64,000 nt of DNA from an uncultured Lachnospiraceae bacterium. GTDB lineage: Bacteria > Bacillota > Clostridia > Lachnospirales > Lachnospiraceae. The position numbers and the translations under genes are program-made. The notes under the pieces are model-generated. The model did no database searches. It worked only from the letters and a program-made list of their open reading frames with translations, and was not told the origin of the DNA. The stretch covers positions 54,747 to 118,746 of the forward strand of contig CAMUYQ010000003.1 in the NCBI GenBank assembly GCA_947165025.1, given 5' to 3'. Positions 2,654 through 20,821 of the stretch are shown one piece after another (within the stretch, counting starts at the first letter, position 1; each line of letters starts with the position of its first letter).

Positions 2654-5600
2654 GTGTGTATGGATTTTCAGGCTGTAGTAGACAAAATGACCGCAATGAC
2701 ATGTGTTGTCTCGGTGGAGCATTTTCCGGACGGAAGATACGGCAAATTCCGAATTGTCACGGGAAACCGCGCGTACATCGATTCGATTGAGCATCCTGCA
2801 CCCGGAACTCAGATGCTTACCAGTAAATTTACTCCGAACTCGGAATACACCGATTACCTGACAAGGGATCTGAACTTCGAGGATTTCTGCTACCGCGCAG
2901 CTGTCGGAAAGAAATGCCTTCACTCATACGCACATCCGGACAGGATGAATGTCTGGATCAACATGTCCTTCCTGCCGCTCGATGCTGATGAGGAAAACCT
3001 AAGCTACTGCCTTTACATGATGGAGATAAACTTCGAGGCAGATTCCGAGAACATGTCGGGTGTGGCATCTGATACTGCTGCCTCAGTACTTGAAACCTGT
3101 ATCAAGCTGAGCGGAACGACTGATTTTAAAGCTACGATCAAAGACGTGACTGAGGAAATACGGGATCTGTGTCATGCCGAACACTGCTGTATCCTTGTCA
3201 TGAATGAGTTTGACAGATCATGCTATGTACTCGGGGAGGCTTTTCAGGAGGGAACAAAGCTCCTTCCCATGGAGACATATGTTGACGATGCATTTTATGA
3301 CATTGCCGATTCATGGAAAGGCACGATCGCAGGAAGCAACTGCCTGATCGCAAAGAACGAGCAGGATATGGAGATCGTCAAAGAACGTAATCCGGTATGG
3401 TACGAGTCTCTTACAAGCGCAGGCGCATATAACATAGTCCTCTTCCCGTTAAAATCACGCAACCAGCTTCTCGGTTATATGTGGGCTCTTAATTTTGATT
3501 CGAAGCTTGCGGTTAAGATCAAGGAGACACTGGAGGTCACGACATTCATCGTAGGATCCGAACTTGGTAACTACCTTCTTGTTGACAGACTCCGCCTGAT
3601 GGGATCGATAGATATGCTTACCGGAGTCATGAACCGTAACGAGATGAACAATGTCGTTGACGAACTTGCACACGGTATAAAAGAGGATGTTTCGGTCGGC
3701 GTAATATTTGCGGATCTTAACGGCCTTAAGACCGTCAATGATGTTAACGGACACAATGCCGGCGATACGCTTCTTAAGAACGCATCGGCGGCACTTAGAA
3801 AAGTTTTTTCCGAGAAAGAGATATTCCGTGCCGGAGGCGATGAGTTCTCGATCATCGTTACCGGTATAACCGAAAAGGAACTCGATGAGAAGATAGAAAT
3901 GATCAGAAAGGTGAGTAAAGACTTTGATGATCTTTCATTCGCTCTCGGAGGCAGTGTTGAAAAGAACAGCACAAACGTCAGAATGGCTCTGCGCCGTGCT
4001 GATGAGAGGATGTACGAGGATAAGCAGAAATACTACAGCAAGCATCCGGGCCGCGCAGAGGAAAACAGAAGAAGCCGCGGTAATGTGAACAGTCCCGCAC
4101 CGGCCGGTCCGGAAGATGCCATGATAAGGGAACTGAACTACGATACACTGACGGGTCTTCCGAGTATGGCATACTTCTTCAGGCTTGCCGAGACAGGCAG
4201 AAAGAGCATGCATGATAATGAGGTGGAATCCGCACTTGTATTCATTAATCTTAACGGCCTCAGATTCTTCAACCAGAAGTACGGATTTGCTGAAGGCGAT
4301 CAGCTCATCAAAGAGTTCGGCCGGATCATATCTGAAATGTTCGGAAAGGATAACTGCAGTCACTTCGGCCAGGATCATTTTGCGCTTTTTACGGAAGCAT
4401 CCGGAGTGGAAGATAAACTGAAGAAGATCTTCAGGACAATGAAAAAGGCCAACGGAGGGAAAACGCTTTTTGTGCGTGCCGGGATATATCCGGATTCAAT
4501 GGGCATCGTCGAAACATCCGTTGCGATCGACAGAGCAAGGTATGCATGCGATTCTGTCAGGGATGATAACAGTTCGTATTTCAATTATTATGACAAGACC
4601 ATGCTCCAGCGGGAGATAAACAGGAAATACGTCATTGATAATCTTGACAGGGCGCTGGCTGAAAACTGGATAACCGCATTTTATCAGCCGATCGTCAGGG
4701 CAACGAGCAGAAAGATCTGTGATGAAGAGGCTCTGGCAAGATGGATAGATCCGGATAAGGGTATGTTTTCGCCGGCTGATTTTATCCCGATACTTGAAGA
4801 TTCAAAGCTGATATACAAGGTCGATCTTCATATTGTTGACGTTATCCTGGAGAAGATAAAGAAACAGAAGGCGGCCAATCAGTTTACCGTTCCTGTCAGT
4901 GTCAATCTCTCAAGAACCGACTTTGAGTGCTGTGACATAGTGGAAGAGATCAACAACCGTGTTGAGGCGGCCGGAGTGTCAAAAGATCTGATCACGATCG
5001 AGATAACCGAAAGCGTTGTCGGTGAGAATTTTGATTACATGAAGGAGCAGATCAGCCGTTTCCAGAATCTTGGTTTCAAGGTATGGATGGATGACTTCGG
5101 AAGCGGTTATTCATCACTTGATCTTCTTCAGGAACTTCAGTTTGACCTGATCAAATTTGATATGCGTTTCATGAGACAGTTTGAGACGACACCGAAGTCG
5201 AGAGTCATCCTGACAGAGCTTATGAGAATGGCAGCAAGCCTTAACATAGAAACGGTATGTGAAGGTGTTGAGACAGCCGAACAGGTTGAGTTCCTGTCGG
5301 AGATCGGATGTACGAAGATGCAGGGGTATTACTTCTGCAAACCAATCCCGTATGACCAGATCAAGGAGAGATACAAGAACGGTCTTCAGATCGGATTTGA
5401 GGATCCTGAAGAACATGGTTACCATAAGATGCTCAGTGCGATCAATCTTTATGATCTGGGTGCTATTTCAAGTGAAGAGTGCGAATCCGTAAAACATTAT
5501 TTTAATACGATCCCGATGGCGATCATTGAATCAAACGGCGATGATCTCAGCATATTAAGGTGTAACAAGACTTACCGTGAGTTTTCCGAACGGTATAAAG

Positions 5601-6586
5601 ACATAGAAGATGAGATGATTGATGGTATACGCCAGTGCGAGAATATAGGGCAGAGAACGTTCTTAAGTGAACCTTCGGCGGACGGCGATATGGTTAACAT
5701 CATGATCCGACGTGTCATTGATAATCCGGTCACGAATGTCGGGGCGTTTGCCGTGGCGGTTCTTGACATAACCGGAAAGAATGATCAGTCGCCTACTTAC
5801 ACCGGCGTCGCAAAAGCTCTTTCCGCCGATTTCATAGATATGTACTATGTTGATCTCGACACTGAAAGATTCACGCAGTATTCGTCGTCGGACAAGAATG
5901 GTATATCGGCAGAAAGAAGCGGAGAGGGATTCTTTACGACGAGCCGCAAAGATGCTCTCGAATACATATACTTCGATGACCAGGAGCCGTTCATAAGAGC
6001 CTTTACAAAAGAGAATGTCGAAAGATCTCTCAATGAGAACGGTGTTTTCACGCATATGTACAGGCTTCTTATAGATGGGGAGCCGCAGTATGTGAACATG
6101 AAAGCAGTCCGTATGGATAATGCCGGTAACCGGATCGTAATCGCCGTAAGTAACGTAGACGCTCAGATGAGACAGCAGGAAACACTGGAGCGCCTCAAGG
6201 AAGAGACGATCACATATTCAAGGATCTCCGTACTTATGGGTGACTTCATCGCGATCTATACGGTCGATCCGGAAACGGGCAGCTATATGCAGTACAGTTC
6301 ATCGGATGAATTCTCCAATCTGGGAACATCAAGGGCCGGAGTTGATTTCTTCGGAGATTCGCGCGAAGAGATACGCTCAAGTATCGTACCCGAAGACTAT
6401 GATATGTTCATGAAAGAGTTCACTAAAGAAAATGTTCTCGGCAAGACTCAAAGGGGTGAACTGTTTGTATTGAATTACAGACTTAAGCTCGGCAAAGAGC
6501 CCGTGCAGATAACATTAAGGGCAGGCATTGTCAGGGAGAAAGACGGCCCGCAGCTGATCGTCGGTGTAGCAAAGGGGAATTCTTGA
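2654..6586 (+). CDS. Multidomain c-di-GMP turnover protein: sensor(PAS/GAF-like)-GGDEF-degenerate GGDEF-EAL-2x C-terminal PAS-like repeats
   Basis: Intact RAGGDEFSII. The second cyclase-like domain has GQDHFALF in place of GGDEF. EAL domain motifs EALARW, EITES, DDFGSGYSSL, QGYYFCKP. Two related C-terminal repeats (YYVDLDTERFTQYSSSD / IYTVDPETGSYMQYSSSD). Confidence 0.9.
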   Translation: MCMDFQAVVDKMTAMTCVVSVEHFPDGRYGKFRIVTGNRAYIDSIEHPAPGTQMLTSKFTPNSEYTDYLTRDLNFEDFCYRAAVGKKCLHSYAHPDRMNVWINMSFLPLDADEENLSYCLYMMEINFEADSENMSGVASDTAASVLETCIKLSGTTDFKATIKDVTEEIRDLCHAEHCCILVMNEFDRSCYVLGEAFQEGTKLLPMETYVDDAFYDIADSWKGTIAGSNCLIAKNEQDMEIVKERNPVWYESLTSAGAYNIVLFPLKSRNQLLGYMWALNFDSKLAVKIKETLEVTTFIVGSELGNYLLVDRLRLMGSIDMLTGVMNRNEMNNVVDELAHGIKEDVSVGVIFADLNGLKTVNDVNGHNAGDTLLKNASAALRKVFSEKEIFRAGGDEFSIIVTGITEKELDEKIEMIRKVSKDFDDLSFALGGSVEKNSTNVRMALRRADERMYEDKQKYYSKHPGRAEENRRSRGNVNSPAPAGPEDAMIRELNYDTLTGLPSMAYFFRLAETGRKSMHDNEVESALVFINLNGLRFFNQKYGFAEGDQLIKEFGRIISEMFGKDNCSHFGQDHFALFTEASGVEDKLKKIFRTMKKANGGKTLFVRAGIYPDSMGIVETSVAIDRARYACDSVRDDNSSYFNYYDKTMLQREINRKYVIDNLDRALAENWITAFYQPIVRATSRKICDEEALARWIDPDKGMFSPADFIPILEDSKLIYKVDLHIVDVILEKIKKQKAANQFTVPVSVNLSRTDFECCDIVEEINNRVEAAGVSKDLITIEITESVVGENFDYMKEQISRFQNLGFKVWMDDFGSGYSSLDLLQELQFDLIKFDMRFMRQFETTPKSRVILTELMRMAASLNIETVCEGVETAEQVEFLSEIGCTKMQGYYFCKPIPYDQIKERYKNGLQIGFEDPEEHGYHKMLSAINLYDLGAISSEECESVKHYFNTIPMAIIESNGDDLSILRCNKTYREFSERYKDIEDEMIDGIRQCENIGQRTFLSEPSADGDMVNIMIRRVIDNPVTNVGAFAVAVLDITGKNDQSPTYTGVAKALSADFIDMYYVDLDTERFTQYSSSDKNGISAERSGEGFFTTSRKDALEYIYFDDQEPFIRAFTKENVERSLNENGVFTHMYRLLIDGEPQYVNMKAVRMDNAGNRIVIAVSNVDAQMRQQETLERLKEETITYSRISVLMGDFIAIYTVDPETGSYMQYSSSDEFSNLGTSRAGVDFFGDSREEIRSSIVPEDYDMFMKEFTKENVLGKTQRGELFVLNYRLKLGKEPVQITLRAGIVREKDGPQLIVGVAKGNS

Positions 6587-6617
6587 CAAATCGGTTAGGT
6601 TGATGCAAAATATGAAA

Positions 6618-6712
6618 GGCGTTCGCTGATAAGAATTCGACTGAAGGAGACTCGCGCATGAGGATCACCTTCGGTGATGGGCGCTCGTCGTGCAGGCAGG
6701 GTATCCCCTACC
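6618..6712. repeat. Structured intergenic repeat element, copy 1 (short form)
   Basis: A ~50-nt core (6646-6695) is the reverse complement of 58363-58411. The internal hairpin ATCACC-TTC-GGTGAT corresponds to ATTACC/GGTAAT in the other copy, a compensatory change. Confidence 0.6.
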
Positions 6713-6719
6713 AACATTT

Positions 6720-6803
6720 GCAGAAATGGCGGAATTGGCAGACGCGCACGGTTCAGGTCCGTGTGAGGTAACACTCATGAGGGTTCAAGTCCCTTTTTCT
6801 GCA
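6720..6803 (+). tRNA. tRNA-Leu (anticodon CAG), long variable arm, no encoded CCA
   Basis: Hand-folded cloverleaf. Acceptor GCAGAAA/TTTCTGC; D-stem GCG/CGC with a GG loop; anticodon stem CACGG/CCGTG with loop TTCAGGT; 17-nt variable arm; T-arm GAGGG-TTCAAGT-CCCTT; discriminator A. Confidence 0.85.
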
Positions 6804-6804
6804 C
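6788..6804 (+). repeat. att core copy 1 (AGTCCCTTTTTCTGCAC), 3' end of tRNA-Leu
   Basis: The same 17-mer recurs at 34529-34545 and 46617-46633 (identical) and at 44761-44777 (one mismatch), all in direct orientation. Confidence 0.8.
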
Positions 6805-6808
6805 TTAA

Positions 6809-6840
6809 TAGCATCTGATTTCATCAGGTGCTATTTTGTT
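6809..6840 (+). terminator. Intrinsic terminator after tRNA-Leu (supplied by the inserted element)
   Basis: Stem TAGCATCTGAT / ATCAGGTGCTA (one G-T pair), 3-nt loop, then TTTTGTT. Confidence 0.6.
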
Positions 6841-6924
6841 GCCTAAAAACGCTGTAACGGCGCGGGTTTAAAGGCTATCACTATGTTCGACATACGTCGT
6901 CTCTTTTTGTCTGATTTCGACAGT

Positions 6925-6982
6925 TTTCCCCCATCGATGGGGGAAAAAATGGGGGAAAAATTGGGGGAAAAATTGGGGGATA
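6925..6982 (+). repeat. GGGGGAAAA array (candidate arm-type recombinase sites), left end of segment 1
   Basis: Perfect palindrome TTTTCCCCC-ATCGAT-GGGGGAAAA, followed by three more GGGGGAAAA-like copies at a 12-bp period. A related array lies at 34455-34492. Confidence 0.5.
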
Positions 6983-6994
6983 AGACATGCTTCT

Positions 6995-7064
6995 TGCATT
7001 TCACGTCAAAAAAAGTGCGTTTCACGTATAATATATAATTATAAGTGGCAATCTTTCCGAAAAT
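6995..7064 (+). promoter_or_regulatory. Class-1 LytTR-type operator plus promoter of the RR/HK operon
   Basis: TGCATTTCACG (6995-7005) and TGCGTTTCACG (7016-7026), starting 21 bp apart. A TCCGAAAA box lies 42 bp after the proximal repeat; a TATAAT at 7027 is an alternative -10. Confidence 0.6.
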
Positions 7065-7099
7065 TAGAACGACATATTGGATTTAGAAGGAAGTCATAA

Positions 7100-7852
7100 A
7101 TGGATCATAAAATGAAGATCGCCATATGCGATGATGAAAAGCCCATAAGGGACTATATAGAAAAATGCGTGCGTGAAGTAAAGGCAGATGTTGAAGTTGT
7201 TCAATATCCGGATGCTTCAGAAATGGTTGCGGCAAGTTTTGATGCAGATATACTATTCCTGGATATCCAGATGCCGGGTATGGACGGGATGAAAGCAGCT
7301 CGGATACTTCGGACTATGGGTAACAAAACTATCATAGTTTTTGTTACTGCTGTTGAGGAGTATGTATTCCAAGCGTTTGATGTTGGGGCGGTGCAATACA
7401 TAGTAAAGCCGTTTGACAGAAACAAACTTATAGATACGATCAAAAAGACGATAGCTCTTGCCGAAGAGAGAAACAGCATAGATGCTGCCCTTTCAGATAT
7501 GAATGAGTCAAATGAAGCTAAAAGATCTATAACGATCAAGTCTGATGGCGTTAACAGACGGGTTATATTGACGGAAATAATGTATGCTGAAGTGTTTGAA
7601 CATCGCATAATACTCCATATGAATGATAAGGAGTGTATTAACTATTACGGGAAGATGTCTGATCTTGAAATGGTTGCCGGAAAAGACTTTTATCGGGTGC
7701 ACCGGGCGTATCTGATCAATCTTGCGTATGTTAAGTCATATGATTCGAAGAGCGTTTCGATTTCAGGAGAGGAGATCCCCGTGGCTCGGGGAAAATATCA
7801 GGAACTTGTAAAAGCATACTTGTCATACTACACACGTAAGGAGCATTTATGA
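7100..7852 (+). CDS. LytTR-family response regulator (REC + LytTR DNA-binding domain)
   Basis: REC motifs ICDDE, FLDIQMPGMDG, VTA, VKPF; C-terminal LytTR signature FYRVHRAYLINLAYV. Confidence 0.9.
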   Translation: MDHKMKIAICDDEKPIRDYIEKCVREVKADVEVVQYPDASEMVAASFDADILFLDIQMPGMDGMKAARILRTMGNKTIIVFVTAVEEYVFQAFDVGAVQYIVKPFDRNKLIDTIKKTIALAEERNSIDAALSDMNESNEAKRSITIKSDGVNRRVILTEIMYAEVFEHRIILHMNDKECINYYGKMSDLEMVAGKDFYRVHRAYLINLAYVKSYDSKSVSISGEEIPVARGKYQELVKAYLSYYTRKEHL

Positions 7853-9255
7853 TCGACTATATTGTTGCCAATTTTGCGTCATTCGCTGATGCTTTTACTC
7901 ATTGTCTGGTAGTCATATATATAATCTGTGTGTCTTTTCTGTTATCAGTCTGGATAAAACCGTTTGTTCAAATCCGCAGGGCGTCATCTCTTACCGCGAT
8001 CATATATTTCATTTTCAGATTTATATACTATTTGATACCTGTAGATAGTGATTTTATCAGGGGGATTGCGTTTGGGATCATACCCGTAGTATTCCTTGTT
8101 TCATGGCTTTTGGATAATAAAAGGAATCCGGTCCAGAAACTGTTCCTTTCAATTCTCTATTATCTGATAAGCTGGCTGACATATGAGATTTCAGTGGAGA
8201 TCGGTCTTTTTGAAAGAGATATCATGTACAGATTTGAATGGTATCATTCGGATGCCAATGCCATTGCGATCGAGTTTATCATATGGAATTTGATCGAATA
8301 TGCTTTTGCGGTAGTTATTCTGTATATTTCAGTGCGCCTTATTCAGAAGGCATATATAAGAAAAATGGAAGAATTGTCATGGAAAGAACTGTTGATGCTG
8401 CTAGCCCCGTTCTGGACTATTCTTTTGGTAAAACCAATTATGTTGGCGTATTTCACTCTCTGGATGGATGGTATAGCAAATGGGAGTATAAATGAAAACA
8501 TACCGTCAAGCATTTATCGCCTGGTGTTCTGTGTTCTGTCGCTACTGTCTGTAATTATCATTATTACGCTGTATCAGAGGATCAAAGAGGCCACGGATGA
8601 TAAATATGCAAGACAGTCCCTTGAGAATCAGATCGAGGATATCCGGCGACATATGGGGCAGATAGAGGATATGTATGAAAAGATGAGAGCGATGCGGCAT
8701 GACATGGGCAATCATATGGCTGTGATAGAGGGCCTTGCAGATAAGGGAGAGAAGGATGCCCTGAGTGAGTATATCGGACAGTGGAAAAAGAATTATGATG
8801 AGTCAGGAACACTGGTTAAGACCGGAAATCCGATCATCGATGTTGCAATTTCGGAGTTTGCCGCAAGATTTAAAGAGTCTGACATACCGTTTGAACAGTC
8901 ATTTCAGTATCCCGAACAGCTTACGATCAATCCATTCGATCTGTGTGTTGTGGTAACAAATGCGCTTCAGAATGCATATGAAGCATCTGTAAACACGAAA
9001 ACACCCTCAGTATCACTGACATCTGTTGTCCGTGATCAAACGTTTATCATCAGTCTGAGAAACCATACAGACAACAAAGTGTATATAAATTTCGAAGAAG
9101 ATATACCGGTTTCGTCAAAAAAGGAAGACGGTCATGGGTACGGACTAAAGAATATAAGGACAATCGCCCGTAAGTACAAGGGTGATATCGAAATACGTCA
9201 AGAAGTTGAAAAAGACGGGTATATGTTTGTTCTGAACGTCATGTTTATTGGCTGA
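7849..9255 (+). CDS. AgrC/HPK10-like membrane sensor histidine kinase (GHKL)
   Basis: About six N-terminal hydrophobic helices; H-box MRHDMGNHM; N-box NALQNAYEA; G-box GHGYGLKNI; start overlaps the RR stop (ATGA). Confidence 0.85.
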   Translation: MIDYIVANFASFADAFTHCLVVIYIICVSFLLSVWIKPFVQIRRASSLTAIIYFIFRFIYYLIPVDSDFIRGIAFGIIPVVFLVSWLLDNKRNPVQKLFLSILYYLISWLTYEISVEIGLFERDIMYRFEWYHSDANAIAIEFIIWNLIEYAFAVVILYISVRLIQKAYIRKMEELSWKELLMLLAPFWTILLVKPIMLAYFTLWMDGIANGSINENIPSSIYRLVFCVLSLLSVIIIITLYQRIKEATDDKYARQSLENQIEDIRRHMGQIEDMYEKMRAMRHDMGNHMAVIEGLADKGEKDALSEYIGQWKKNYDESGTLVKTGNPIIDVAISEFAARFKESDIPFEQSFQYPEQLTINPFDLCVVVTNALQNAYEASVNTKTPSVSLTSVVRDQTFIISLRNHTDNKVYINFEEDIPVSSKKEDGHGYGLKNIRTIARKYKGDIEIRQEVEKDGYMFVLNVMFIG

Positions 9256-9257
9256 AC

Positions 9258-9327
9258 CGCAATTCACGACTGAAAAAGTGCGCTTCACGTCGAATCTATT
9301 GTTTATTTCTACAATTTCCCGATACTA
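9258..9327 (+). promoter_or_regulatory. Class-1 LytTR-type operator, copy 2, plus CCCGATAC box
   Basis: CGCAATTCACG (9258-9268) and TGCGCTTCACG (9279-9289), 21 bp apart; CGATA at 9320, 41 bp after the proximal repeat. Confidence 0.55.
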
Positions 9328-9360
9328 AAAGCATAATATGAAATGGTTTTTTCGCGTGGG

Positions 9361-9429
9361 TGCAATTCACGTCGAAAAAAGTGCATTTCAAGTAATGTGG
9401 GTTTATTTGATGCTGTCCTATTACGATAG
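9361..9429 (+). promoter_or_regulatory. Class-1 LytTR-type operator, copy 3, plus TACGATAG box
   Basis: TGCAATTCACG (9361-9371) and TGCATTTCAAG (9382-9392), 21 bp apart; CGATA at 9424, 42 bp after the proximal repeat. Confidence 0.55.
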
Positions 9430-9574
9430 AACGATTAGATACAGCATCAAATGTGTCAAGTTCGCAGAACTTGACATGTAGCGTCGGCTCTTCGACGAAG
9501 TCGAATCAGGATGAGCCGACGTTCTCGGGTTGCAAGGAAACGGATTTCATAAGAAGAACAGGAGGTTCAGGAAG
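9406..9574 (+). promoter_or_regulatory. Inverted repeat around the putative -10, plus a multi-hairpin GGA-rich 5' leader for the first cluster gene
   Basis: 11-bp inverted repeat TTTGATGCTGT/ACAGCATCAAA (9406-9416 / 9441-9451). Hairpin 9454-9476 (10 bp). Nested hairpin 9482-9521 with unpaired TCAGGAT. Further GGA motifs run up to the SD AGGAGG. Confidence 0.5.
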
Positions 9575-10351
9575 ATGTCAACAATAAGACAAACAGCAGG
9601 CAGTAATTATTTTGATGAGACCTATGGCGGAGGTAGTTCAGGCTATTCCAATGATTTTCTGTCAGGGTTAAGTGTAAATACCAACAGTAATGGCGGCGGT
9701 TCATTCGATCTGGCGGATTATGCCATGATCAAGAACGGATCATACGGCAAGCTTATGAAGGCGTACTACGGACAGGAAAAAGCACAGAAGGCCGTAGAAT
9801 CCAAGGAGAGCACTTCCAAGCTTACACAGATGGCCGGTAATGCCGGAGGAATGGCAAATGCAGCAAAAGCCCTGATGGATGATTCATTATGGCAGAAGAA
9901 GACCATAACGGAGAAGGACGAAAAGACCGGAGAGGAAACGACTAAAGAAGATTATGACTGGAAGGCCATCACAAAGGCTGTTAAGGGATTCATCGAAAAC
10001 TATAACAACACAGTGGCTGGTGCAGGTGAATCCGATACAAAGGGTGTGTTGAGGAATGCTTCCTTCATGGTCAAGACAACGGCGGCATACAAGAAAACAC
10101 TTGAAAAGGCCGGCATCACGATCACAAGCGGAAATAAGCTCGAACTTAACGAGGAAGACCTTAAGAATGCGGACATTTCAACGCTTAAGACACTGTTTAC
10201 GGGTTACAACTCTTTTGCCGACAAGATGGCGACAAAGGGTAACACGATAGCAAACGAAGCTGCAAGTGCCGGCGGAACATATACGAGCAATGGAACGTAT
10301 TCCAAAGCACTGTCACAGATAGTATCGACCAAGATCGATACCAAAGAATAA
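9575..10351 (+). CDS. Short FliD (flagellar cap, HAP2)-like protein
   Basis: Start at ATG 9575 behind SD AGGAGG (the track ORF starts at an upstream TTG). By eye, FIENYNNTV, SLWQKK, GVLRNAS and LEKAGITITSGNKLELNEEDLKNADISTLKTLFTG resemble the Firmicute FliD motifs FVDxYN, LWEEKAK, GLLRND and GITT...GKLxxDExKL...LF. No signal peptide. Confidence 0.45.
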   Translation: MSTIRQTAGSNYFDETYGGGSSGYSNDFLSGLSVNTNSNGGGSFDLADYAMIKNGSYGKLMKAYYGQEKAQKAVESKESTSKLTQMAGNAGGMANAAKALMDDSLWQKKTITEKDEKTGEETTKEDYDWKAITKAVKGFIENYNNTVAGAGESDTKGVLRNASFMVKTTAAYKKTLEKAGITITSGNKLELNEEDLKNADISTLKTLFTGYNSFADKMATKGNTIANEAASAGGTYTSNGTYSKALSQIVSTKIDTKE

Positions 10352-10396
10352 CAAGGATGTTAACGATAATCACGGAAGATTAAGGAGGATTAGACC

Positions 10397-11044
10397 ATGT
10401 CAATGAATGTAGGAACAGATTATACGAATTACAAAACCGGATACACTAACACAGAAAATCAGAAAAAGGATGTCGATATTTCCGAAAAGACTGCAGATCA
10501 GGGCAAGACTGCGTATGTCAAGGAAGGTGTTGTTTATGATAAGTCCGGAGAAAAAGTAGACAACTCAACATATTCGATCAATAAGATGAGCGCAACTGAC
10601 AGGGCTGCGATCGTCGATCAGCTGAAGGAAGATGCAAGGCAGAGGGAACAGCAGCTTGTAAGCATCGTGCACAGAACAATAGCTGATCAGGCCGGAGCAT
10701 ATGGAAAAGCTACCGGAAATGATATCTGGACACTCCTTTCTGGCGGAAAGGTTACTGTAACTGCAGCCGAAAAGGCACAGGCACAGAGAGATATCAGTGA
10801 AGACGGGTATTACGGTGTTAAGCAGACATCCCAGAGATTGTTTGACTTTGCCTGTGCGCTTGCCGGGGATGACGTGGATAAGATGAAAGAAATGCAGAAG
10901 GCCATGGAGAAGGGTTTCAAGCTTGCTACAAAATCATGGGGTAAGGAACTTCCGGGCATATGCGGAGAAACATTTGATGCGGCTAACAAACTGTTTGAGG
11001 AATATTACAGGTCAAAAGATCCTGGAGCAGCATTGTCAGAATAG
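10397..11044 (+). CDS. Hypothetical protein (cluster gene 2)
   Basis: SD AAGGAGGA 6 nt upstream; conserved-looking C-terminal helical segment GYYGVKQTSQRLFDFACALAGDD...EKGFKLATKSWGKELPGI; no TM helix or signal peptide. Confidence 0.7.
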   Translation: MSMNVGTDYTNYKTGYTNTENQKKDVDISEKTADQGKTAYVKEGVVYDKSGEKVDNSTYSINKMSATDRAAIVDQLKEDARQREQQLVSIVHRTIADQAGAYGKATGNDIWTLLSGGKVTVTAAEKAQAQRDISEDGYYGVKQTSQRLFDFACALAGDDVDKMKEMQKAMEKGFKLATKSWGKELPGICGETFDAANKLFEEYYRSKDPGAALSE

Positions 11045-11148
11045 GTGGCGTAAAGTTTTCATAGAAAACTTTGCGGCACGTTGGCCACGACTTCCACGCA
11101 GTGGAATTGTTATGTCGTGGCTCTCAAGAGTAGGAGAGGACTAAAGCC

Positions 11149-11736
11149 ATGAACATAACCATGAAAGGTGCCGGCCTTCTCGGAATGGGTAATCCCGGTC
11201 TTAAAAGTACACAGGACCGTCTGGACAGAATGGTCAAAAGGGATAATAAAATAGCGTTCTTTGAGCAGCAGAAAGAGAATCTGAAGACTATGAAGACGGA
11301 TTCGCTTGAAGATATCTCAAGAAAACTGGAAATGCTTCATGGTTATGATGATCAGATCGCGCTTGCAAAGGTTGAGTTCAATAACAGTCAGGTTTTCCAT
11401 ATGCTTGATGAAGCAAGGGAACTTGGCGAGAAGATTGCTGAAGCAGCCGAGAAGAATGCTCCTAAGACTCCAGAAGAAAGACGCGAGGATATGATCGAGG
11501 AGGTTACAGGAGTAGATATGGACGGTGGAATACTTGGAGAAGTGATGGACGAACTCGAGGATATCACGGAAGAGATGACGGAGAAAGCCGCGGAAGAGCT
11601 TGAAGAAATGACAGAGGAGACTCTTTCGGAGCAGGATCTGAAACAGGCATTGTATCAGGAACCTTTAAGCACTGAGGATCCTGTGGAAGATGATCTGTTG
11701 CAGGATAAGTATAAACGGATCGATTACCGGGTATAG
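11149..11736 (+). CDS. Hypothetical acidic coiled-coil-like protein (cluster gene 3)
   Basis: Complete ORF with SD GGAGAGGA; E/D-rich C-terminal half; structured upstream intergenic region (hairpins within 11050-11130). Confidence 0.65.
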   Translation: MNITMKGAGLLGMGNPGLKSTQDRLDRMVKRDNKIAFFEQQKENLKTMKTDSLEDISRKLEMLHGYDDQIALAKVEFNNSQVFHMLDEARELGEKIAEAAEKNAPKTPEERREDMIEEVTGVDMDGGILGEVMDELEDITEEMTEKAAEELEEMTEETLSEQDLKQALYQEPLSTEDPVEDDLLQDKYKRIDYRV

Positions 11737-11778
11737 GAAACGGATTTCCTATCATAATAGTCAAAGGAGGACGAAATC

Positions 11779-12327
11779 ATGGCATTATCAGGTATCATGA
11801 CAACATCGCTGTTGTCGGCAAATAATTCAATGAAGATCGCAAGAGTACAACAGGGCGCCAAGAACCAGATGGACGGACACGCCGGTGTGCTTGATGCAGA
11901 GATAAAGCTAGACAGCGCCCGGGGCGGGGATGTTAAGAAAAAACAGGAAGAGCTTGAGGAGACAAAGAAAAAGGCTTCCGAACTTGAAGAATCCACTATG
12001 AATACGCTTTCGGCTACATCCGATGATCTGAAGAAGGCGGCTAAAGACGATCTTGAAGCCAGAAGGGCAGAGAAGGCTGAAGAGAAGAAGAAAGCCGAAA
12101 AAGCAGCAGAGAAAAAGAGGGTGGAGAAGAAGGCTACCGAAGAGAGGATCGAGAAGATCGGAGAAGCAGCAACATCTGAAACCGCAGAGATATCTGATGG
12201 TGATCATAGTGTATCGGTAGAGGGAACATTGTTTGAAGGCGCCACGATCAATGTCGTTGTTGACGGTGTAACTCCAAGCACAGGCGCAACCGGAACAATA
12301 GGCGTATCGATGGACGAAAAAGCCTGA
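11779..12327 (+). CDS. Hypothetical K/E-rich protein with weak flagellin-N-terminus-like start (cluster gene 4)
   Basis: SD AAGGAGGA. N-terminus SLLSANNSMKIARVQQG...DGHAGVLDAEIK loosely recalls flagellin LSANN...DDAAGLAISEKM; the rest is K/E-rich low complexity. Confidence 0.6.
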   Translation: MALSGIMTTSLLSANNSMKIARVQQGAKNQMDGHAGVLDAEIKLDSARGGDVKKKQEELEETKKKASELEESTMNTLSATSDDLKKAAKDDLEARRAEKAEEKKKAEKAAEKKRVEKKATEERIEKIGEAATSETAEISDGDHSVSVEGTLFEGATINVVVDGVTPSTGATGTIGVSMDEKA

Positions 12328-12341
12328 CAGAGGGTTATAAT

Positions 12342-12923
12342 ATGAAAATCACGGGATCATACAATCAATATGAGCTGAATAATATGGAATCAACAGGCAG
12401 TAAGCCCAAGGCAGAAAAGGAATACGCCAACTATCTGATGAAGAAGTATCCGTGCCTGTCTCCAGGAAAGAATTCTGTTGTATCTGTAACAAGTGGATTA
12501 TTGCGTAAAGCCATGTCCGATGAGAAGACCGGTGAGTGGCTTGAGAGAGAATTATCAAAGGCTCCCGATTATATCAAACAGGCTCAACAGTCTGCGATTG
12601 CCCATGGTTCAACCCTGAAGTTCTGTTCTATAGAGTTCGGAGAGGAGTATTCCACGATGTGTACGCTTACTGTAACAGACGGCGGAGGAACTGATCCGGA
12701 CATTGATGAATGGCTTGAGAAGGTTAAGAAGGAAAGGGCTGAGCGAAAAGCCGAGGAAAAGAAACAGGAAGAAGAACGCGCAGAGGTTCGCCGACAGGAA
12801 ACAGAAACATATAAGATGGAACTAAAGGGCAGGGATCTTGAAGATCTGACAAGACAGTTCGCCATGAATCTGACAACACAAGCCTCAACGCTTTCGAACG
12901 GTTCAATTGATATAAAAGCGTGA
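12342..12923 (+). CDS. Hypothetical protein, member of an in-cluster paralogue family (cluster gene 5)
   Basis: Shares the pattern VS[VIL][ST]xxG...M..D.....W ... [IF]xFGE with the products of 16684-17607 and 17619-18254. Confidence 0.65.
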   Translation: MKITGSYNQYELNNMESTGSKPKAEKEYANYLMKKYPCLSPGKNSVVSVTSGLLRKAMSDEKTGEWLERELSKAPDYIKQAQQSAIAHGSTLKFCSIEFGEEYSTMCTLTVTDGGGTDPDIDEWLEKVKKERAERKAEEKKQEEERAEVRRQETETYKMELKGRDLEDLTRQFAMNLTTQASTLSNGSIDIKA

Positions 12924-12934
12924 TCATTTCAATG

Positions 12935-13035
12935 TAAACAATTATCTTCAAAATGCCGATATATATTTAAGATAAGTGATAATGTCGCCTGATCAGAAAA
13001 GGAGTTCGGATCAGTATTGTCAAGGAGGATGACAC
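12935..13035 (+). promoter_or_regulatory. Sigma-D/sigma-28-type promoter plus hag-like leader (GGA hairpin + GGA-containing SD)
   Basis: TAAA (12935-12938), 16-nt spacer, GCCGATAT (12955-12962). Hairpin 12989-13014 presents AAGGAG in its loop. SD AAGGAGGA at 13023-13030. Confidence 0.6.
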
Positions 13036-13689
13036 ATGAGCGGGATAAATGCGGTTAATAACGGTAAATCCGGTGAATTTCTACAGGGAATTCAGACGAC
13101 AATAAAGGAAAAACTGAATAATGCTATTGAAGAAGGAGCATTCTCCAACGCATTTGATGAAGGAGTAGCTGCAACCCTTTCAATATCGTCATCCGGGATC
13201 GCTCAGGCTAGTCGGGCAGAAAGAGAAGATATCATTCGACAATCTATAGTCCAGCTGGATGGCGGGTATAGAAAGTTTAATCTTACAGATGAAGAAGCCT
13301 GTATTCTCAAGAGTTTCCGGTTGGAAGAATACTATGATATCCGGAATAGAATGAAGAATGAGGATATTAACGCCTATAATGATCTTTTAAAGTCTGAAGA
13401 GATCGCCGACAAGAACTCCGACCCGAGCGCAAAGTTTAAAGTATATTCAAAAGCATATAACTGGGCTTACGGGGACGTTTTTGACAGAATCCATAAGGAA
13501 AATCCGGAAGTTGATATTTATGTAAGATCACCGGGGACGGAGGAAAATCATAACTATCAAATGAGAAATAACAGAACCTCACTTATTATTTCCACGGATG
13601 AAATAAAACTCCTTCAGTCAAGAAATAACAACGATAAGAAAGCACAGGAAGAACTGTGGAATAGGATCCTGGAAAAGATCCGATCATGA
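13036..13689 (+). CDS. Hypothetical protein (cluster gene 6)
   Basis: Complete 217-aa ORF with a strong SD; no recognisable motif. Confidence 0.65.
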   Translation: MSGINAVNNGKSGEFLQGIQTTIKEKLNNAIEEGAFSNAFDEGVAATLSISSSGIAQASRAEREDIIRQSIVQLDGGYRKFNLTDEEACILKSFRLEEYYDIRNRMKNEDINAYNDLLKSEEIADKNSDPSAKFKVYSKAYNWAYGDVFDRIHKENPEVDIYVRSPGTEENHNYQMRNNRTSLIISTDEIKLLQSRNNNDKKAQEELWNRILEKIRS

Positions 13690-13707
13690 GTTTGATGAAA
13701 TGACAAG

Positions 13708-13787
13708 TCGGGATATATTAAAGGAAAGCATTAATATCGCTTGATCCGAAAAGGAGTTCGGATTCATATGATCAAGGAGGATATCAC
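13708..13787 (+). promoter_or_regulatory. Second copy of the hag-like leader (GGA hexaloop hairpin + SD)
   Basis: Hairpin ATCCGAA-AAGGAG-TTCGGAT (13744-13763). SD AAGGAGGA at 13774-13781. A degenerate TCGGGATAT box at 13708 has no convincing -35. Confidence 0.5.
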
Positions 13788-14756
13788 ATGAAGGTCAATA
13801 ACACATCCTTTTTTATGAATGATGGCGTATTTGGAACATCGAATACATCGGAGCGTTCAAACAATAATCCATCCAAATCATCCGGAATATCGATAAACGG
13901 CAGTTCTTTTGCCATGCAGAATGATCCCATTGCGGCCAAGCGGGAGGAAGCCCGTAAGAAAGCAATGAAGGTCATCGGGGATGCGTTTGCTAATGACCGG
14001 AAGATTGATGAAGACCTTGATGCAAGAAGCGAGCATATCCGAAAGCTGAAAACTGTTCAGAATGACGCAAATAAAGTGATCAACGAAATAGAATCAGACC
14101 GTGCTGCTCTTCGAGATGAGTATGGTATTGATACGGACAGTCAGGAAGAGAAAGATCTCCAGCTTCTTGAGAAGGAATTCAGGGCACGCCAAAAAGGTTC
14201 TGATGTTCAACTTACAAAGGAGGATATGGAGGAGATCGCTAAGATTAAGGCAAAGGGCCTTACGGAATATCAGAGCAGGTCGATGGAAATGCTTGATTAT
14301 GAGAAACCATATCTTGATGCAGCATATGAGGCTAAAGCCGGTATAGAAGAGGAAAATCTAACCATTGCAGCAATAAAGCGTGAACTTCCGAAGAATGACG
14401 CAATGTTGAAAGCCCAGGATAAAGCCGATGCCATAGAAGATGCTGCATCAAAAGAGATCATGGGGATGCTTGTCGATGAAGCGAAGGAACAAATCGACGA
14501 AGAGGCAAAGGAGGCCGAAGAAAAGGCCAAGGAGAAACAGGAGAAGGAAGAAGAACTCCAGGAGAAGATCGATGCCGCAAGGGAAAGACGTAAGGAAGAG
14601 GAAGAACTCACTGAAGACATCGTGGAATCTGCCCAGGATCTTAATGTTACAACAGCTAACATAAATGATGCACAGAAGGACATTAAGGATATGATGAACA
14701 AACTGGCACTCGTAGAAGAAGATATGAAGGGTGCCGCTGTGGATCAAAAATCATAA
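13788..14756 (+). CDS. Hypothetical coiled-coil-like protein (cluster gene 7)
   Basis: S/N-rich N-terminus, then a long K/E/D-rich helical-looking region; 322 aa. Confidence 0.65.
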   Translation: MKVNNTSFFMNDGVFGTSNTSERSNNNPSKSSGISINGSSFAMQNDPIAAKREEARKKAMKVIGDAFANDRKIDEDLDARSEHIRKLKTVQNDANKVINEIESDRAALRDEYGIDTDSQEEKDLQLLEKEFRARQKGSDVQLTKEDMEEIAKIKAKGLTEYQSRSMEMLDYEKPYLDAAYEAKAGIEEENLTIAAIKRELPKNDAMLKAQDKADAIEDAASKEIMGMLVDEAKEQIDEEAKEAEEKAKEKQEKEEELQEKIDAARERRKEEEELTEDIVESAQDLNVTTANINDAQKDIKDMMNKLALVEEDMKGAAVDQKS

Positions 14757-14793
14757 AGCATATTGATTGGTACTACCATTCAATATAGATCGG

Positions 14794-14824
14794 TCGGGTC
14801 ACGGAAAACGTGGCCCGATTTTTT
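14794..14824 (+). terminator. Intrinsic terminator ending the first transcription block of the cluster
   Basis: 10-bp stem TCGGGTCACG/CGTGGCCCGA (one G-U pair), loop GAAAA, followed by TTTTTT. Confidence 0.7.
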
Positions 14825-14829
14825 GTTTA

Positions 14830-15010
14830 TAGTCGTTTTATGTCATATGATAGTCGATTTTTGAAATATATATAAATATGGGATTAAATTGGTCGATAGA
14901 TATTTCAGATGATTTATTTCTATAAGTGTATAAAGAATTTGCTAAGGAAAGCACCCCAGAGGATCCATGGAGAGGATCGTAATTATAATGAGGTGCTTTT
15001 ACTTTTTTAA
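14830..15010 (+). promoter_or_regulatory. Regulatory cassette: class-2 LytTR-type operator + TAAA-N15-GTCGATAG promoter + GGA leader with terminator-like hairpin
   Basis: TAGTCGTTTTA (14830) and TAGTCGATTT (14851), 21 bp apart. TAAA at 14873-14876 and GTCGATAG at 14892-14899. GCTAAGGAAAGC at 14941. Hairpin AAAGCACC/GGTGCTTT (14948-14999) followed by a T-run. Confidence 0.55.
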
Positions 15011-15056
15011 CAGGGGGAGTAGTAAGCCGGCAAGGGGAAACCGGAAGAAAAAACTT

Positions 15057-15764
15057 ATGAAAATTTGGATCTGTGACGGAGAGAAAAGTGATATTGATGA
15101 GTTGAAGAGCCTTATCGATTGTTACAAAAAGAAAAAAGATATAGGGAATGTTGAAGTAAGAGTGTTTGGTGATGCTGCTGAACTTATACAGGAAATGATT
15201 GACGGTGATGCTGCAGATATTATTATTTTAGATGCAATGATAGCGGAAAATGGAACTGAGGATCTTCTTAAAAAAATACGAACTAGGAATTCAGATTCAA
15301 AAGTCATTCTGCTTATTTCGGAAATGAGACATGTACTTGACGGATATCAGATGAAAACAGATTGGATTCTTTTGAAAGAAAACCCCTCTGACAGATTTTT
15401 TGAATGTATGGATAGGCTGTGTTCAGACATCCGGGAGAAACGAAAAATCCTTTCCTTGTCGTGTGTAGAGGGAGATTATGTTTTCAGCCGATCGAAAATA
15501 CTGTTTATAGAGAGTGAAGGTCATCGCTGTACAATTCATGAATTGAATGGAGATTATCACATATACCGTCGCCTGGATGAACTCGAAGAGAGAATAGATT
15601 CGCCGTATTTTATACGAATTCATCAAAGCTATCTAGTCAATGTCAAATACATACAACGTATAAGCAATTACGAACTAACAATGGCAGACGGTTGTATCTT
15701 GCCAGTATCTAAGGCGAGATATAAACAGGTTCAGCGTGAATACGCAGAAAATAAAATGAATTGA
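15057..15764 (+). CDS. Orphan LytTR-family regulator with a divergent receiver-like N-terminal domain
   Basis: C-terminal LytTR signature FIRIHQSYLVNVKYI. The N-terminal REC-like fold has ICDGE in place of the DD/DE pocket, and IIILDAMI. Start moved to ATG 15057 because the track start 14967 lies inside the leader hairpin. Confidence 0.75.
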   Translation: MKIWICDGEKSDIDELKSLIDCYKKKKDIGNVEVRVFGDAAELIQEMIDGDAADIIILDAMIAENGTEDLLKKIRTRNSDSKVILLISEMRHVLDGYQMKTDWILLKENPSDRFFECMDRLCSDIREKRKILSLSCVEGDYVFSRSKILFIESEGHRCTIHELNGDYHIYRRLDELEERIDSPYFIRIHQSYLVNVKYIQRISNYELTMADGCILPVSKARYKQVQREYAENKMN

Positions 15765-15766
15765 TA

Positions 15767-15910
15767 TAGTCGTTTTATGCATTATATGATCGATTCAGGA
15801 CATTCCTATAATATGAATTGCGAAATGTGCCGATAACTATATCAGATAATTGTATAAGCTAAGGATAGCAGCTGTGGTCAAAGGAATGAACTTTGATGAC
15901 AGTCTTTTTT
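15767..15910 (+). promoter_or_regulatory. Regulatory cassette, copy 2 (class-2 operator, GCCGATAA box, GGA leader, terminator-like hairpin)
   Basis: TAGTCGTTTTA at 15767 and TGATCGATTCA at 15787. GCCGATAA at 15829-15836. GCTA-AGGA-TAGC at 15858-15869. Hairpin 15872-15902 with GGA at its apex, then TCTTTTTT. Confidence 0.55.
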
Positions 15911-15926
15911 ATAAGTGGGGGGTAGT

Positions 15927-16502
15927 ATGAACATTTTTTTTGAGAAACCTGAAGAACAGAAGATAACCAGCCAAAGGGAGCTGGTGGAGCATTTACTCAA
16001 TAATTCCGGTGATGTTGATGAGATGTCGGAGGAAAATCGCAGAGAGATGGACGCCCGGATAATGGCAAAGCTTAAATCCGGAAAAAAGCTTTCGCAAAAG
16101 GAACTGGATTATCTTAGGAGAACAAACCCCATACTTTATGCTCAGGCAATGAGAGTACAGAGAATGGCGGAGGCGCTCGAAGAACAGCTTAAGCATGCGA
16201 GAAGCAAGGAGGAAGTTAACCAGATCTTTACTACTGCGTTGTCCGGTATATCCAAGAATGATCCTGACCGTGAATACCTTGTGGCTTCTTTCAATCGTAT
16301 TTCTACAGAGTTTCGCAAATCTAAAATGTATAATAAGCTGCTGACCACCACTGAGGAAGCAAGGAAGAAAAAGAAACAGGTAGATCCGGATAAGGATCTG
16401 TTTAAGGAAGATAATGATGACAAAGACGGGTTTGATCTGAGCAGTTGGAGTCCTTTACGTGAGTTGTATGAACAGATGCCATCTTTTGTGGCCGGAGCGT
16501 GA
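15927..16502 (+). CDS. Hypothetical helical protein (cluster gene 9)
   Basis: ATG 15927 behind a GGGGGG SD (the track ORF starts at an upstream GTG inside the SD); K/E-rich, no motif recognised. Confidence 0.65.
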   Translation: MNIFFEKPEEQKITSQRELVEHLLNNSGDVDEMSEENRREMDARIMAKLKSGKKLSQKELDYLRRTNPILYAQAMRVQRMAEALEEQLKHARSKEEVNQIFTTALSGISKNDPDREYLVASFNRISTEFRKSKMYNKLLTTTEEARKKKKQVDPDKDLFKEDNDDKDGFDLSSWSPLRELYEQMPSFVAGA

Positions 16503-16518
16503 CGATTCTTTGCTATTC

Positions 16519-16660
16519 TTGATGATTTATATGGACGATAGTCGTTTCATGGCATTTATATAATACAGACTTATAACATGTCGATAATAGTATCAGACAA
16601 CTGAATAAGCAAGGGATTGCGGCTGTGTTCAAAGGATTGAATTTTGGAGACAGTTTTTTT
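16519..16660 (+). promoter_or_regulatory. Regulatory cassette, copy 3
   Basis: Half-sites TTGATGATTTA (16519, degenerate) and TAGTCGTTTCA (16539). GTCGATAA at 16580-16587. GCAA-GGGA-TTGC at 16609-16620, which covaries with GCTA...TAGC. Hairpin 16623-16653 followed by TTTTTTT. Confidence 0.55.
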
Positions 16661-16683
16661 ATACGAAATAAGGGGGATTAAGT

Positions 16684-17607
16684 ATGACAGGAACAGCAGT
16701 AGCATCATGTTTCAATTACAGCAGTTACGCAAGTTATCAGACTTCAAGTAAGAAGACGGGTGAGGTATTGTTTTCCGATAGTATTGATGTCAATAGTGAC
16801 AAGGTGAAAAAAGAGGAGTCCCAGAGGGGATCTGTTATGGAGGAATACTATGCAAGAAAGCCTCAGTACAAAGAAAGGGCAAAAGAACGAGTTGATGGCG
16901 GTTATGTTGTTCTAAAGTGTGCCGGGATTTCCACCGAGGACATGGAGAACATGTCCATGAATGAGTTTAAAGATGTGATGAGCAAGGTTATTGCCGGGAT
17001 TCCGCATCATGCCACAAGACCATATGATGAAGAAACGGTACTTATTTCCGAAGAAGGTTGGGAAAACATGAAGAAGGATCCTGATTATGCAGCATATGTG
17101 GTGGGTCTGCTTCAGGAAGACAGATCCTTTGCAAATCCGTTCTTTGCGCTGGGGGATAAAGGAAGTTATATTGTGCAGCATTTTGGCGCATCTCCGGAGG
17201 ACTATCATGGAGTCGGATTTAGCAAGATATACGGTGGTACTGCTGCGGGAGCACGTTCGATGTATAACTCGGCGAAGGCAGGAGGAATTGAGACGCGTGG
17301 CCCACAGGCGGATCTTCAGCCTCCGTCAGACTATAATCTTTGGGAAGAGAGAAGAAAAGCAAAGAGGCGTAAAAGAAAAGAGCAGCTTGATGAAGAAATC
17401 ATGTCTCAATATTATCAGAAGAAGCATTTGAACGATCTGTATGAAAAGAAACTTTACGAGAACAAGGAACTTGCACGATCTCGCAGTGTGGCTGAAATGA
17501 TAGGATCACGGAGCAATACATCACATGCGCCGAAGCTTTCTATGGCAAGCGGTACGGCGTTTTATGAAGCGGCGTTTATGACATCTGATATAACTGAAAT
17601 GTTTTAG
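16684..17607 (+). CDS. Hypothetical protein, paralogue family member (cluster gene 10)
   Basis: LISEEGWENMKKDPDYAAYVV ... IVQHFGASPED aligns by eye with the next gene and with 12342-12923; basic KRRKRK segment near the C-terminus. Confidence 0.65.
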   Translation: MTGTAVASCFNYSSYASYQTSSKKTGEVLFSDSIDVNSDKVKKEESQRGSVMEEYYARKPQYKERAKERVDGGYVVLKCAGISTEDMENMSMNEFKDVMSKVIAGIPHHATRPYDEETVLISEEGWENMKKDPDYAAYVVGLLQEDRSFANPFFALGDKGSYIVQHFGASPEDYHGVGFSKIYGGTAAGARSMYNSAKAGGIETRGPQADLQPPSDYNLWEERRKAKRRKRKEQLDEEIMSQYYQKKHLNDLYEKKLYENKELARSRSVAEMIGSRSNTSHAPKLSMASGTAFYEAAFMTSDITEMF

Positions 17608-17618
17608 GAGCATCTTGT

Positions 17619-18254: not shown

Positions 18255-18256
18255 AA

Positions 18257-18403
18257 TAGTCGTTTTATGTCATATTATAGTCAGTTTATGCAGAGGGTGT
18301 TTAGTGGTTATACAGACACGACGATAAAACTTTCAGATCAATATAAGAGCTAAGGATAGCGGCTGTGTTCAAAGGAGTGAACCTTGATCACGGTCGTTTT
18401 TTT
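18257..18403 (+). promoter_or_regulatory. Regulatory cassette, copy 4
   Basis: TAGTCGTTTTA (18257) and TAGTCAGTTTA (18278), 21 bp apart. GACGATAA at 18320-18327. GCTAAGGATAGC at 18349-18360. Imperfect hairpin 18359-18395 followed by TTTTTTT. Confidence 0.55.
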
Positions 18404-18488
18404 GTAATCAAAAATAAGATACCGCTCGGACCTTTCCGGAGAGCGGTGCGGCTCTGACTGACAGATGAGTCGCGGAAAGGGGGACAAT

Positions 18489-20678: not shown

Positions 20679-20684
20679 AACTTC

Positions 20685-20766: not shown

Positions 20767-20821
20767 CGTACCAAACAAAGCATAAACAGACAGGAAAACA
20801 AGGACTGGAGGGTAGTGATTA

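Follow-up and report, generated by a model that had tools for sequence, protein, structure and literature searches.

We analysed a 64,000-nucleotide stretch (hereafter the window) from an uncultured Lachnospiraceae bacterium (contig CAMUYQ010000003.1, positions 54,747 to 118,746), in which three copies of a direct-repeat element, termed class 1 here, accompany the genes for a two-component system: a response regulator with a LytTR domain (7100-7852) and a membrane histidine kinase (7849-9255), followed by a cluster of genes for uncharacterised proteins. We put at about three in four the probability that these repeats are the cognate operator of the regulator and that it would act from them to activate promoters with a -10 box of the flagellar sigma-D (sigma-28) type and no -35 element, an explanation drawn from sequence comparison. 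The operator itself is of textbook LytTR architecture; what appears to be new is its coupling to a flagellar-type promoter lacking a -35 element and to a mobile protein cluster across flagellated Lachnospiraceae. In the literature on LytTR together with sigma-D, FliA, Lachnospiraceae or Roseburia we found no description of such a system, and no LytTR activator acting with a sigma-28-type polymerase has, to our knowledge, been published.

Each class-1 site consists of two imperfect 11-bp direct repeats (DR1 and DR2) on the + strand, whose starts are exactly 21 bp apart. Site 1 (6995-7026) has DR1 TGCATTTCACG (6995-7005), spacer TCAAAAAAAG and DR2 TGCGTTTCACG (7016-7026), with 10 of 11 repeat positions identical; site 2 (9258-9289) has DR1 CGCAATTCACG (9258-9268), spacer ACTGAAAAAG and DR2 TGCGCTTCACG (9279-9289), with 8 of 11 identical; and site 3 (9361-9392) has DR1 TGCAATTCACG (9361-9371), spacer TCGAAAAAAG and DR2 TGCATTTCAAG (9382-9392), with 9 of 11 identical. 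Since the three 10-bp spacers are A-rich and themselves alike, the 32-bp element is the real unit. Site 1 lies in the promoter of the regulator/kinase operon, 74 nt 5′ of the regulator start codon, site 2 begins 3 nt past the kinase stop codon, and a further 103 bp on comes site 3, 183 nt before the ATG at 9575 that opens the first cluster gene. The original prediction, made from the window alone, had described three such pairs in a 21-bp phase, one copy at the regulator/kinase promoter and two tandem copies ahead of the cluster; the pairs can be read directly in the sequence at these coordinates and are absent from shuffled controls.

A degenerate pattern of the element (GCDHTTCAMG-N11-GCDHTTCAMG) matched the window three times, at sites 1-3 only, against a mean of 0.09 matches in 100 dinucleotide shuffles of the window, none of which reached three, and the full consensus with up to three mismatches found two of the three sites and nothing in the shuffles. 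Exact matches to the degenerate pattern in the whole 2.7-Mb genome were likewise confined to sites 1-3. With a weight matrix trained on nine sites from other genomes, the window's own sites being excluded, sites 1, 3 and 2 scored 45.5, 34.8 and 32.0 bits, respectively, and were the top three positions of the genome on both strands, the next best scoring 20.7 bits. That matrix scan of the 2.7-Mb genome revealed no further regulon members, the 20.7-bit runner-up being inside other sequence and without a promoter box; a one-mismatch pattern match on contig C6 has a GC-rich spacer and was not counted as a member. A chance origin of the repeats is excluded by the shuffles and the matrix ranking. 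Segmental duplication was ruled out as the source of their similarity, because likeness between the copies in blastn is limited to about 30-36 bp and they are hence not what is left of a longer duplication.

Regulator homologues turned up in 51 of 301 Lachnospiraceae genomes in a protein search, and the four closest relatives (G243, G058, G005 and G221, with 79, 65, 60 and 58% regulator identity, respectively) were examined over long stretches. In all four, differing sets of homologues of the window's cluster genes follow the regulator/kinase pair, a class-1 element precedes the regulator gene and a second one comes directly past the kinase stop codon, and G005 has a third element ahead of its homologue of the gene at 20822-22135. 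With the window genome this makes 12 class-1 sites in five genomes, all on the gene strand; the sequence flanking the elements in the relatives is not conserved. When all 301 genomes were scanned with the pattern, each of the five with a regulator at least 58% identical had a match at that locus, and the reversed pattern, used as a control, gave only nine matches across the whole set. A scan of named genome records added nine further loci (54-80% regulator identity), mostly from rumen metagenome-assembled genomes (MAGs). In eight of these a matrix site lies 74-144 nt before the regulator gene, and in all seven that reach that far and show one a site lies 2126-2327 nt after the regulator start, just past the kinase gene; all are on the gene strand. 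All 16 matrix matches in the nine loci are before the regulator or just past the kinase, except one at position 443 of L110 (Red deer MAG 18), a class-1-like element of 19.8 bits without a CGA box, 2.5 kb 5′ of the regulator gene; this MAG has two copies of the regulator family (L109 and L110).

Over the 13 relative loci thus assembled (54-80% identity), the element stands before the regulator gene in 12 (G243, G058, G005, G221, L104, L105, L107, L108 and L110-L113) and just past the kinase stop codon in 10, two of the other loci ending too early and one showing none. Autoregulation of the two-component system, which the original prediction had proposed, accordingly gains comparative support from the upstream copies, as does its proposal of a double, tandem-promoter input into the first cluster operon from the post-kinase copies and from a second genome, L107, that carries the tandem pair.

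The association extends to a wider family of 80 named loci with regulators 40-80% identical, which include Roseburia faecis, R. zhanii, R. inulinivorans, Lachnospira eligens, L. hominis, Maccoyibacter, Jutongia and Acetivibrio ethanolgignens. A strict detector (two 11-mers with up to four mismatches in a 21-bp phase, then [CAT]CGA[TA]A 27-31 nt on) detected the module upstream of 54 of 78 regulator genes and downstream of 51 of 71 kinase genes. The 21-bp phase, fixed in these wider scans, is exact in every one of the 12 aligned sites, the three of the window included. The half-site varies with the clade of the regulator, being TGCRNTTCACG where regulators are at least 54% identical, (G/T)TTCACAACA with a AAAAAAGG spacer where they are 40-47% identical, and CNTTCACTAC or TTTCACAC in smaller regulator groups; the TTCAC core, the A-tract and the 21-bp phase are constant across clades. 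Even at the distant loci, the genes past the kinase are homologues of the window's cluster families (35-67% identity). Regulator, operator and cargo families hence travel together, and this is our main argument for taking the repeats as the operator of this regulator, an assignment that we judge to be very probable.

At a nearly fixed distance beyond each element lies a box resembling the sigma-D -10 element. On the + strand this box is CCGAAAAT at 7057-7064, 30 nt past DR2 of site 1 (start predicted near 7070); CCGATA (CCGATACT) at 9319-9324, 29 nt past DR2 of site 2 (start predicted near 9332); and ACGATA (ACGATAGA) at 9423-9428, 30 nt past DR2 of site 3 (start predicted near 9436). L107 and L108 have CCGATAAT in place of the window's CCGAAAAT. 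The gap from DR2 to the (C/A)CGA(T/A)A box is 29-30 nt in all 12 aligned class-1 promoters, the intervening sequence not being conserved, and a gap of this length to a CGA(T/A)A box recurs in 15 of the 16 matches in the nine further loci. The CGA columns, nearly invariant across the 12 aligned promoters, are the most conserved positions. The box matches the ends of the genome's own flagellin promoters, (G/T)CCGATAT; its flagellin and hook-associated genes carry TTAAGTTT-N11-GCCGATAT, TTAAGTTT-N11-TCCGATAT and TAAAGTTT-N12-GTCGATAT, with TTAAGTTT or TAAAGTTT as the -35. The sigma-D consensus is TAAA-N13-16-GCCGATAW, and validated C. difficile variants of the -10 include ACGAAAA and GCGAAAA (PMC3865298). 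Class-1 promoters thus have the sigma-D -10 but lack its -35, since a TAAA at N13-16 upstream of the box was found in none of the 12, and the missing -35 fits a dependence on an upstream activator that would take over that contact. The sequence GTTTATTT, which follows both site 2 and site 3, was considered as a shared -35 and rejected as out of register, being 19 and 23 nt from the box.

The genome encodes the flagellar sigma factor FliA (TIGR02479, 266 bits against a cut-off of 189.6, at C6:159571-160233), and the module was seen only in genomes that do so: FliA is present in all 26 tested genomes with regulator homologues, compared to 160 of the 301 sampled Lachnospiraceae (53%), for which the naive probability at a base rate of 0.53 is <1e-6, a value that ignores shared ancestry. 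Among the 51 genomes with a regulator match, the five without FliA are those with the weakest matches. Distant LytTR subfamilies in Lachnospiraceae, with or without FliA, have sigma-A boxes (TGGTAAAAT or GNTATAAT) instead. We therefore lean with some confidence towards sigma-D as the type of these putative core promoters.

Two observations concern other repeat-bearing promoters. In another LytTR subfamily, at L090, L101 and L102 (genomes G199, G015 and G219, with and without FliA), repeats of the form CATTTCACAGCAA-N8-CATTTCACAGCAA are followed by a GNTATAAT sigma-A -10. Within the window, four class-2 promoters (14830-18330), which carry TAGTCGTTTTA repeats, end in GTCGATAG, GCCGATAA, GTCGATAA and GACGATAA, closer still to the sigma-D -10 than the class-1 boxes.

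Several points weigh against this picture. A weak sigma-A -10 is another way to read the box (GATACT, GAAAAT and GATAAT in the window), the first two of these keeping A2 and T6, and many distant homologues have CCGA joined to TATAAT, their CCGATATAAT containing the perfect hexamer. The characterised LytTR activators known to us (AgrA, ComE, PlnC/D and BlpR) work with the housekeeping sigma factor. For AgrA, the promoters have been described (PMC4227749). The link with FliA, uncorrected for phylogeny, might stem from what the regulated genes do and not from promoter recognition. In 24 of the 78 upstream regions the strict detector did not pick up the module, and L109, a locus of the class-1 clade, is without an upstream site. 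The same operator and regulator might then serve an ordinary sigma-A promoter, with the box as a degenerate -10 (resembling GATAAT, or with TATAAT lying two bases further downstream), in the manner of AgrA- and ComE-type promoters. Such a promoter would not, however, require the C-G-A columns 5′ of the putative hexamer, which are the most conserved, nor does it account for the presence of FliA in every genome tested. The class-1 promoters also have no TG extended -10, whereas other Lachnospiraceae LytTR subfamilies show TGGTAAAAT, and the post-kinase boxes of the wider family, GCCGAAAGAA or TCCGAAATAG, are poor hexamers but within the validated sigma-D range (PMC3865298). A generic sigma-70 scan at the three sites yielded only a weak TCTACA-18-CATAAT at 9308-9337, and fewer matches than the shuffles, and so lends no support to canonical sigma-A promoters here. 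On balance, we regard a sigma-A promoter as an unlikely alternative to the sigma-D type.

The proposed binder of the class-1 repeats is a 250-residue protein encoded on the + strand, with a receiver (REC) domain (PF00072 Response_reg, 78.5 bits) and a LytTR domain (PF04397, 51.6 bits against a cut-off of 22.6 bits). Its receiver looks canonical, because the acceptor aspartate (D54, in LFLDIQMPGMDG), T82 and K103 are kept. The best PDB match of its LytTR domain is AgrA (3BS1, E=1.4e-5), that to ComE being weak (4CBV, E=0.009), and it scores 50.7 bits with the AgrA equivalog model, whose cut-off is 400 bits. The kinase gene, also on the + strand and overlapping the regulator gene by 4 nt, encodes 468 residues of AgrC/ComD type (HATPase_c_5 and SPOB_a), with about 6-7 hydrophobic segments in residues 1-246, an H-box RHDMGNH (H284) and a faint likeness to AgrC. 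Neither protein reached an NCBIfam equivalog. The geometry had been attributed to LytTR regulators in the original prediction, and this attribution stood up wherever an operator can be examined from sequence: the 21-bp phase is that of ComE and a LytTR gene is adjacent.

The island encodes a second LytTR protein, an orphan regulator without a kinase (14967-15764), and LytTR half-sites can resemble one another, so that the orphan, or a regulator encoded elsewhere, might be what binds the repeats. The orphan is ruled out as the class-1 binder by co-occurrence, as three genomes that retain class-1 sites (G058, G005 and G221) have no homologue of it at E<=1e-20, and its own promoter and three others carry the different repeat TAGTCGTTTTA. 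Binding by any other protein is also difficult to reconcile with a class-1 half-site that varies with the clade of the kinase-linked regulator, and we consider it very improbable.

We infer activation from the position of the repeats upstream of a promoter that could not work alone, and we hold it likely that the kinase-linked regulator acts at these sites in this sense. Least credible of all is that it represses, as AgrA can at some sites (bsaA, PMC4227749), or that the sites are non-regulatory (arm-type recombinase sites, mobile-element iterons or chance repeats), as might be suggested by their presence on a mobile island next to a tRNA gene and by the GGGGGAAAA array that adjoins site 1: they lie upstream of a -10 box without a -35, with a spacing fixed within 1 bp in 12 of 12 promoters as in an activator-site layout, they precede regulator genes in dozens of genomes, at chromosomal locations that are unrelated, and each has two repeats only, always in gene orientation.

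In the mechanism that we propose, the kinase would phosphorylate the regulator, and two LytTR domains would then bind DR1 and DR2 in tandem, both on the same DNA face since the repeats are 21 bp, or two helical turns, apart. By analogy with the LytTR family (PMC4005675, PMC4227749), the bound form would be a phosphorylated dimer occupying both repeats in tandem on one face and activating transcription. With repeat centres predicted at about -71 and -50 relative to the start, the regulator would recruit or stabilise RNA polymerase at the -10-only core promoter, replacing the -35 contact, and the A-tract between the repeats may aid DNA bending or contact the polymerase alpha subunit. Each promoter would thereby behave as an AND gate that needs sigma-D to be active and the two-component system to be on. 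Because site 1 sits at the regulator's own operon, it would provide positive autoregulation of the regulator/kinase operon, a positive feedback loop, and sites 2 and 3 would drive the first cluster operon. Read-through from site 1 may also contribute to cluster expression, since no terminator was found on the way from the kinase gene to that operon.

The tandem pair ahead of the cluster constitutes two promoter modules 103 bp apart, and both copies look complete, with a correctly spaced box behind each. The single post-kinase site in G243 is the orthologue of site 2, the two sequences staying alike from the 3′ end of the kinase gene through CCGATACT and diverging past the predicted start; L104 and L105, likewise closer relatives, also have a single post-kinase copy. 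The site 3 module is absent in G243 and present in L107, a rumen MAG with a regulator 75% identical, which has both tandem modules and a second promoter region near-identical to that of the window. Since L107 carries the same pair, the double promoter is a feature of the lineage and not an accident of the window genome. A potential hairpin (9407-9414 / 9442-9449), whose loop holds the downstream ACGATA box, could form only in transcripts from the upstream tandem promoter. Further on, in the leader of the first cluster gene (about 9450-9525), a 76-nt stretch with two hairpins, one of them showing GGA, is missing from the otherwise near-identical L107 leader and has no Rfam match. A 47-residue open reading frame at 9338-9481, the only small one in the neighbourhood, was considered as a hidden signal-peptide gene and rejected: it has no ribosome-binding site, spans the site 3 operator and is probably not a gene, because the region is absent from G243.

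Among the closest known systems are the ComE boxes of Streptococcus pneumoniae (comCDE, comAB and comX), which are also imperfect direct repeats in a 21-bp phase for a tandem-packing REC-LytTR regulator, with a copy at the regulator's own operon, giving positive feedback, and further copies at target operons. The ComE half-site core, CA-TTCA-G, resembles the class-1 CATTTCACG. ComE sites are made up of two 9-bp direct repeats and a 12-bp linker, which gives the 21-bp phase (PMC4005675). In contrast to ComE, the system described here has a conserved A-tract spacer, a CCGATA-like -10 of apparent sigma-D rather than sigma-A type, and neither a competence-peptide gene nor a ComAB-type exporter, and its LytTR match to ComE is weak, as noted above. 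The AgrA sites at agr P2/P3 of Staphylococcus aureus invite comparison because AgrA is the best structural match of the LytTR domain and the kinase is faintly AgrC-like. There, the proximal repeat has its centre near -60, and over-long spacers separate the recognisable -35 and -10 elements of P2/P3 (PMC4227749), whereas the class-1 proximal repeat would be centred near -50, with no -35, and the locus has no agrB or agrD genes. Searches of the neighbouring genes with Pfam and NCBIfam found no family of peptide precursors, AgrB-type processing or ComAB-type export, and with peptide and processing genes absent from the neighbourhood this is not a peptide quorum-sensing circuit of the Agr, Com or Pln type.

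With the sigma-D/sigma-28 late flagellar promoters of B. subtilis, C. difficile and this genome's flagellin genes, class-1 promoters share the CGA core (CCGATA, CCGAAA or ACGATA, compared to GCCGATAW). Canonical sigma-D promoters, however, have a -35 (TAAA, or TTAAGTTT here) and need no activator, and class-1 promoters have LytTR repeats instead. The flgM promoter of Bacillus subtilis depends on sigma-D. Activation of flgM by DegU~P has been reported (Hsueh et al. 2011, cited in PMC4793158), making a response regulator a second input to a flagellar-regulon gene. DegU differs from the regulator described here in having a NarL/LuxR-type helix-turn-helix that acts on inverted repeats, not a LytTR domain on direct repeats.

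The complete module (repeats, A-tract, 29-30 nt gap, CCGATA-type -10 and no -35) recurs in dozens of rumen and gut Lachnospiraceae, including the cultured Roseburia faecis, R. inulinivorans and Lachnospira eligens. If the sigma-D assignment is true, the module would be a compact case of a sigma-28 promoter that depends on an activator, and the LytTR family would gain a new partner sigma factor. The operator also offers a handle on an uncharacterised, horizontally mobile gene set of abundant gut commensals. We find slightly better than even odds for a more general proposal, in which a LytTR clade confined to flagellated Lachnospiraceae, Roseburia and Lachnospira included, replaces the -35 contact at sigma-D promoters, so as to form a two-key switch that combines the FlgM/sigma-D checkpoint with an external kinase signal and controls its own operon and a mobile, shuffled set of uncharacterised proteins that are maybe exported by the flagellum.

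The cluster downstream of the kinase is a run of uncharacterised, highly charged proteins (9575-22135). Its first gene (9575-10351, + strand) encodes 258 residues with a FliD_C match at E=0.0012, under the Pfam cut-off, and has blastp homologues 3′ of regulator/kinase pairs in G243 (84% identity), G058, G005, L078, L079, L084 and L086. Cluster-family homologues lie 3′ of such pairs in other genera at L078, L079, L081, L083, L084, L086 and L088, the families concerned being those of 9575-10351, 11149-11736, 11779-12327, 12342-12923 and 15915-16502; most of these homologues (50-67% identity; 34-67% for the 11779-12327 family) are more conserved than the regulator (about 39-47%) and the kinase (27-33%).

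Beyond the cluster lies a relaxase gene on the minus strand (22232-24625), and the region 3′ of a tRNA-Leu(CAG) gene (6720-6804), upstream of site 1, looks like a mobile island integrated beside the tRNA gene. An Rfam scan of 6500-10000 matched the tRNA only, with no RNA family in the leaders. Directly 3′ of the tRNA gene, at about 6810-6840, a hairpin (AGCATCTGA...TCAGGTGCT) followed by TTTTGTT, missed by a simple terminator scan, is probably the tRNA terminator, and as such would probably keep read-through from reaching the regulator promoter. A 1310-residue GGDEF and EAL protein is encoded at 2654-6586, outside the island and directly ahead of the tRNA-Leu integration site. Between the hairpin and site 1, a perfect palindrome TTTTCCCCCATCGATGGGGGAAAA is followed by copies of GGGGGAAAAA with a 12-bp period (6924-6979), in an array that ends 15 bp before DR1 of site 1 and also precedes the L107 and L108 operators; the array may serve a recombinase as an arm site, or another protein may bind it beside the two-component promoter.

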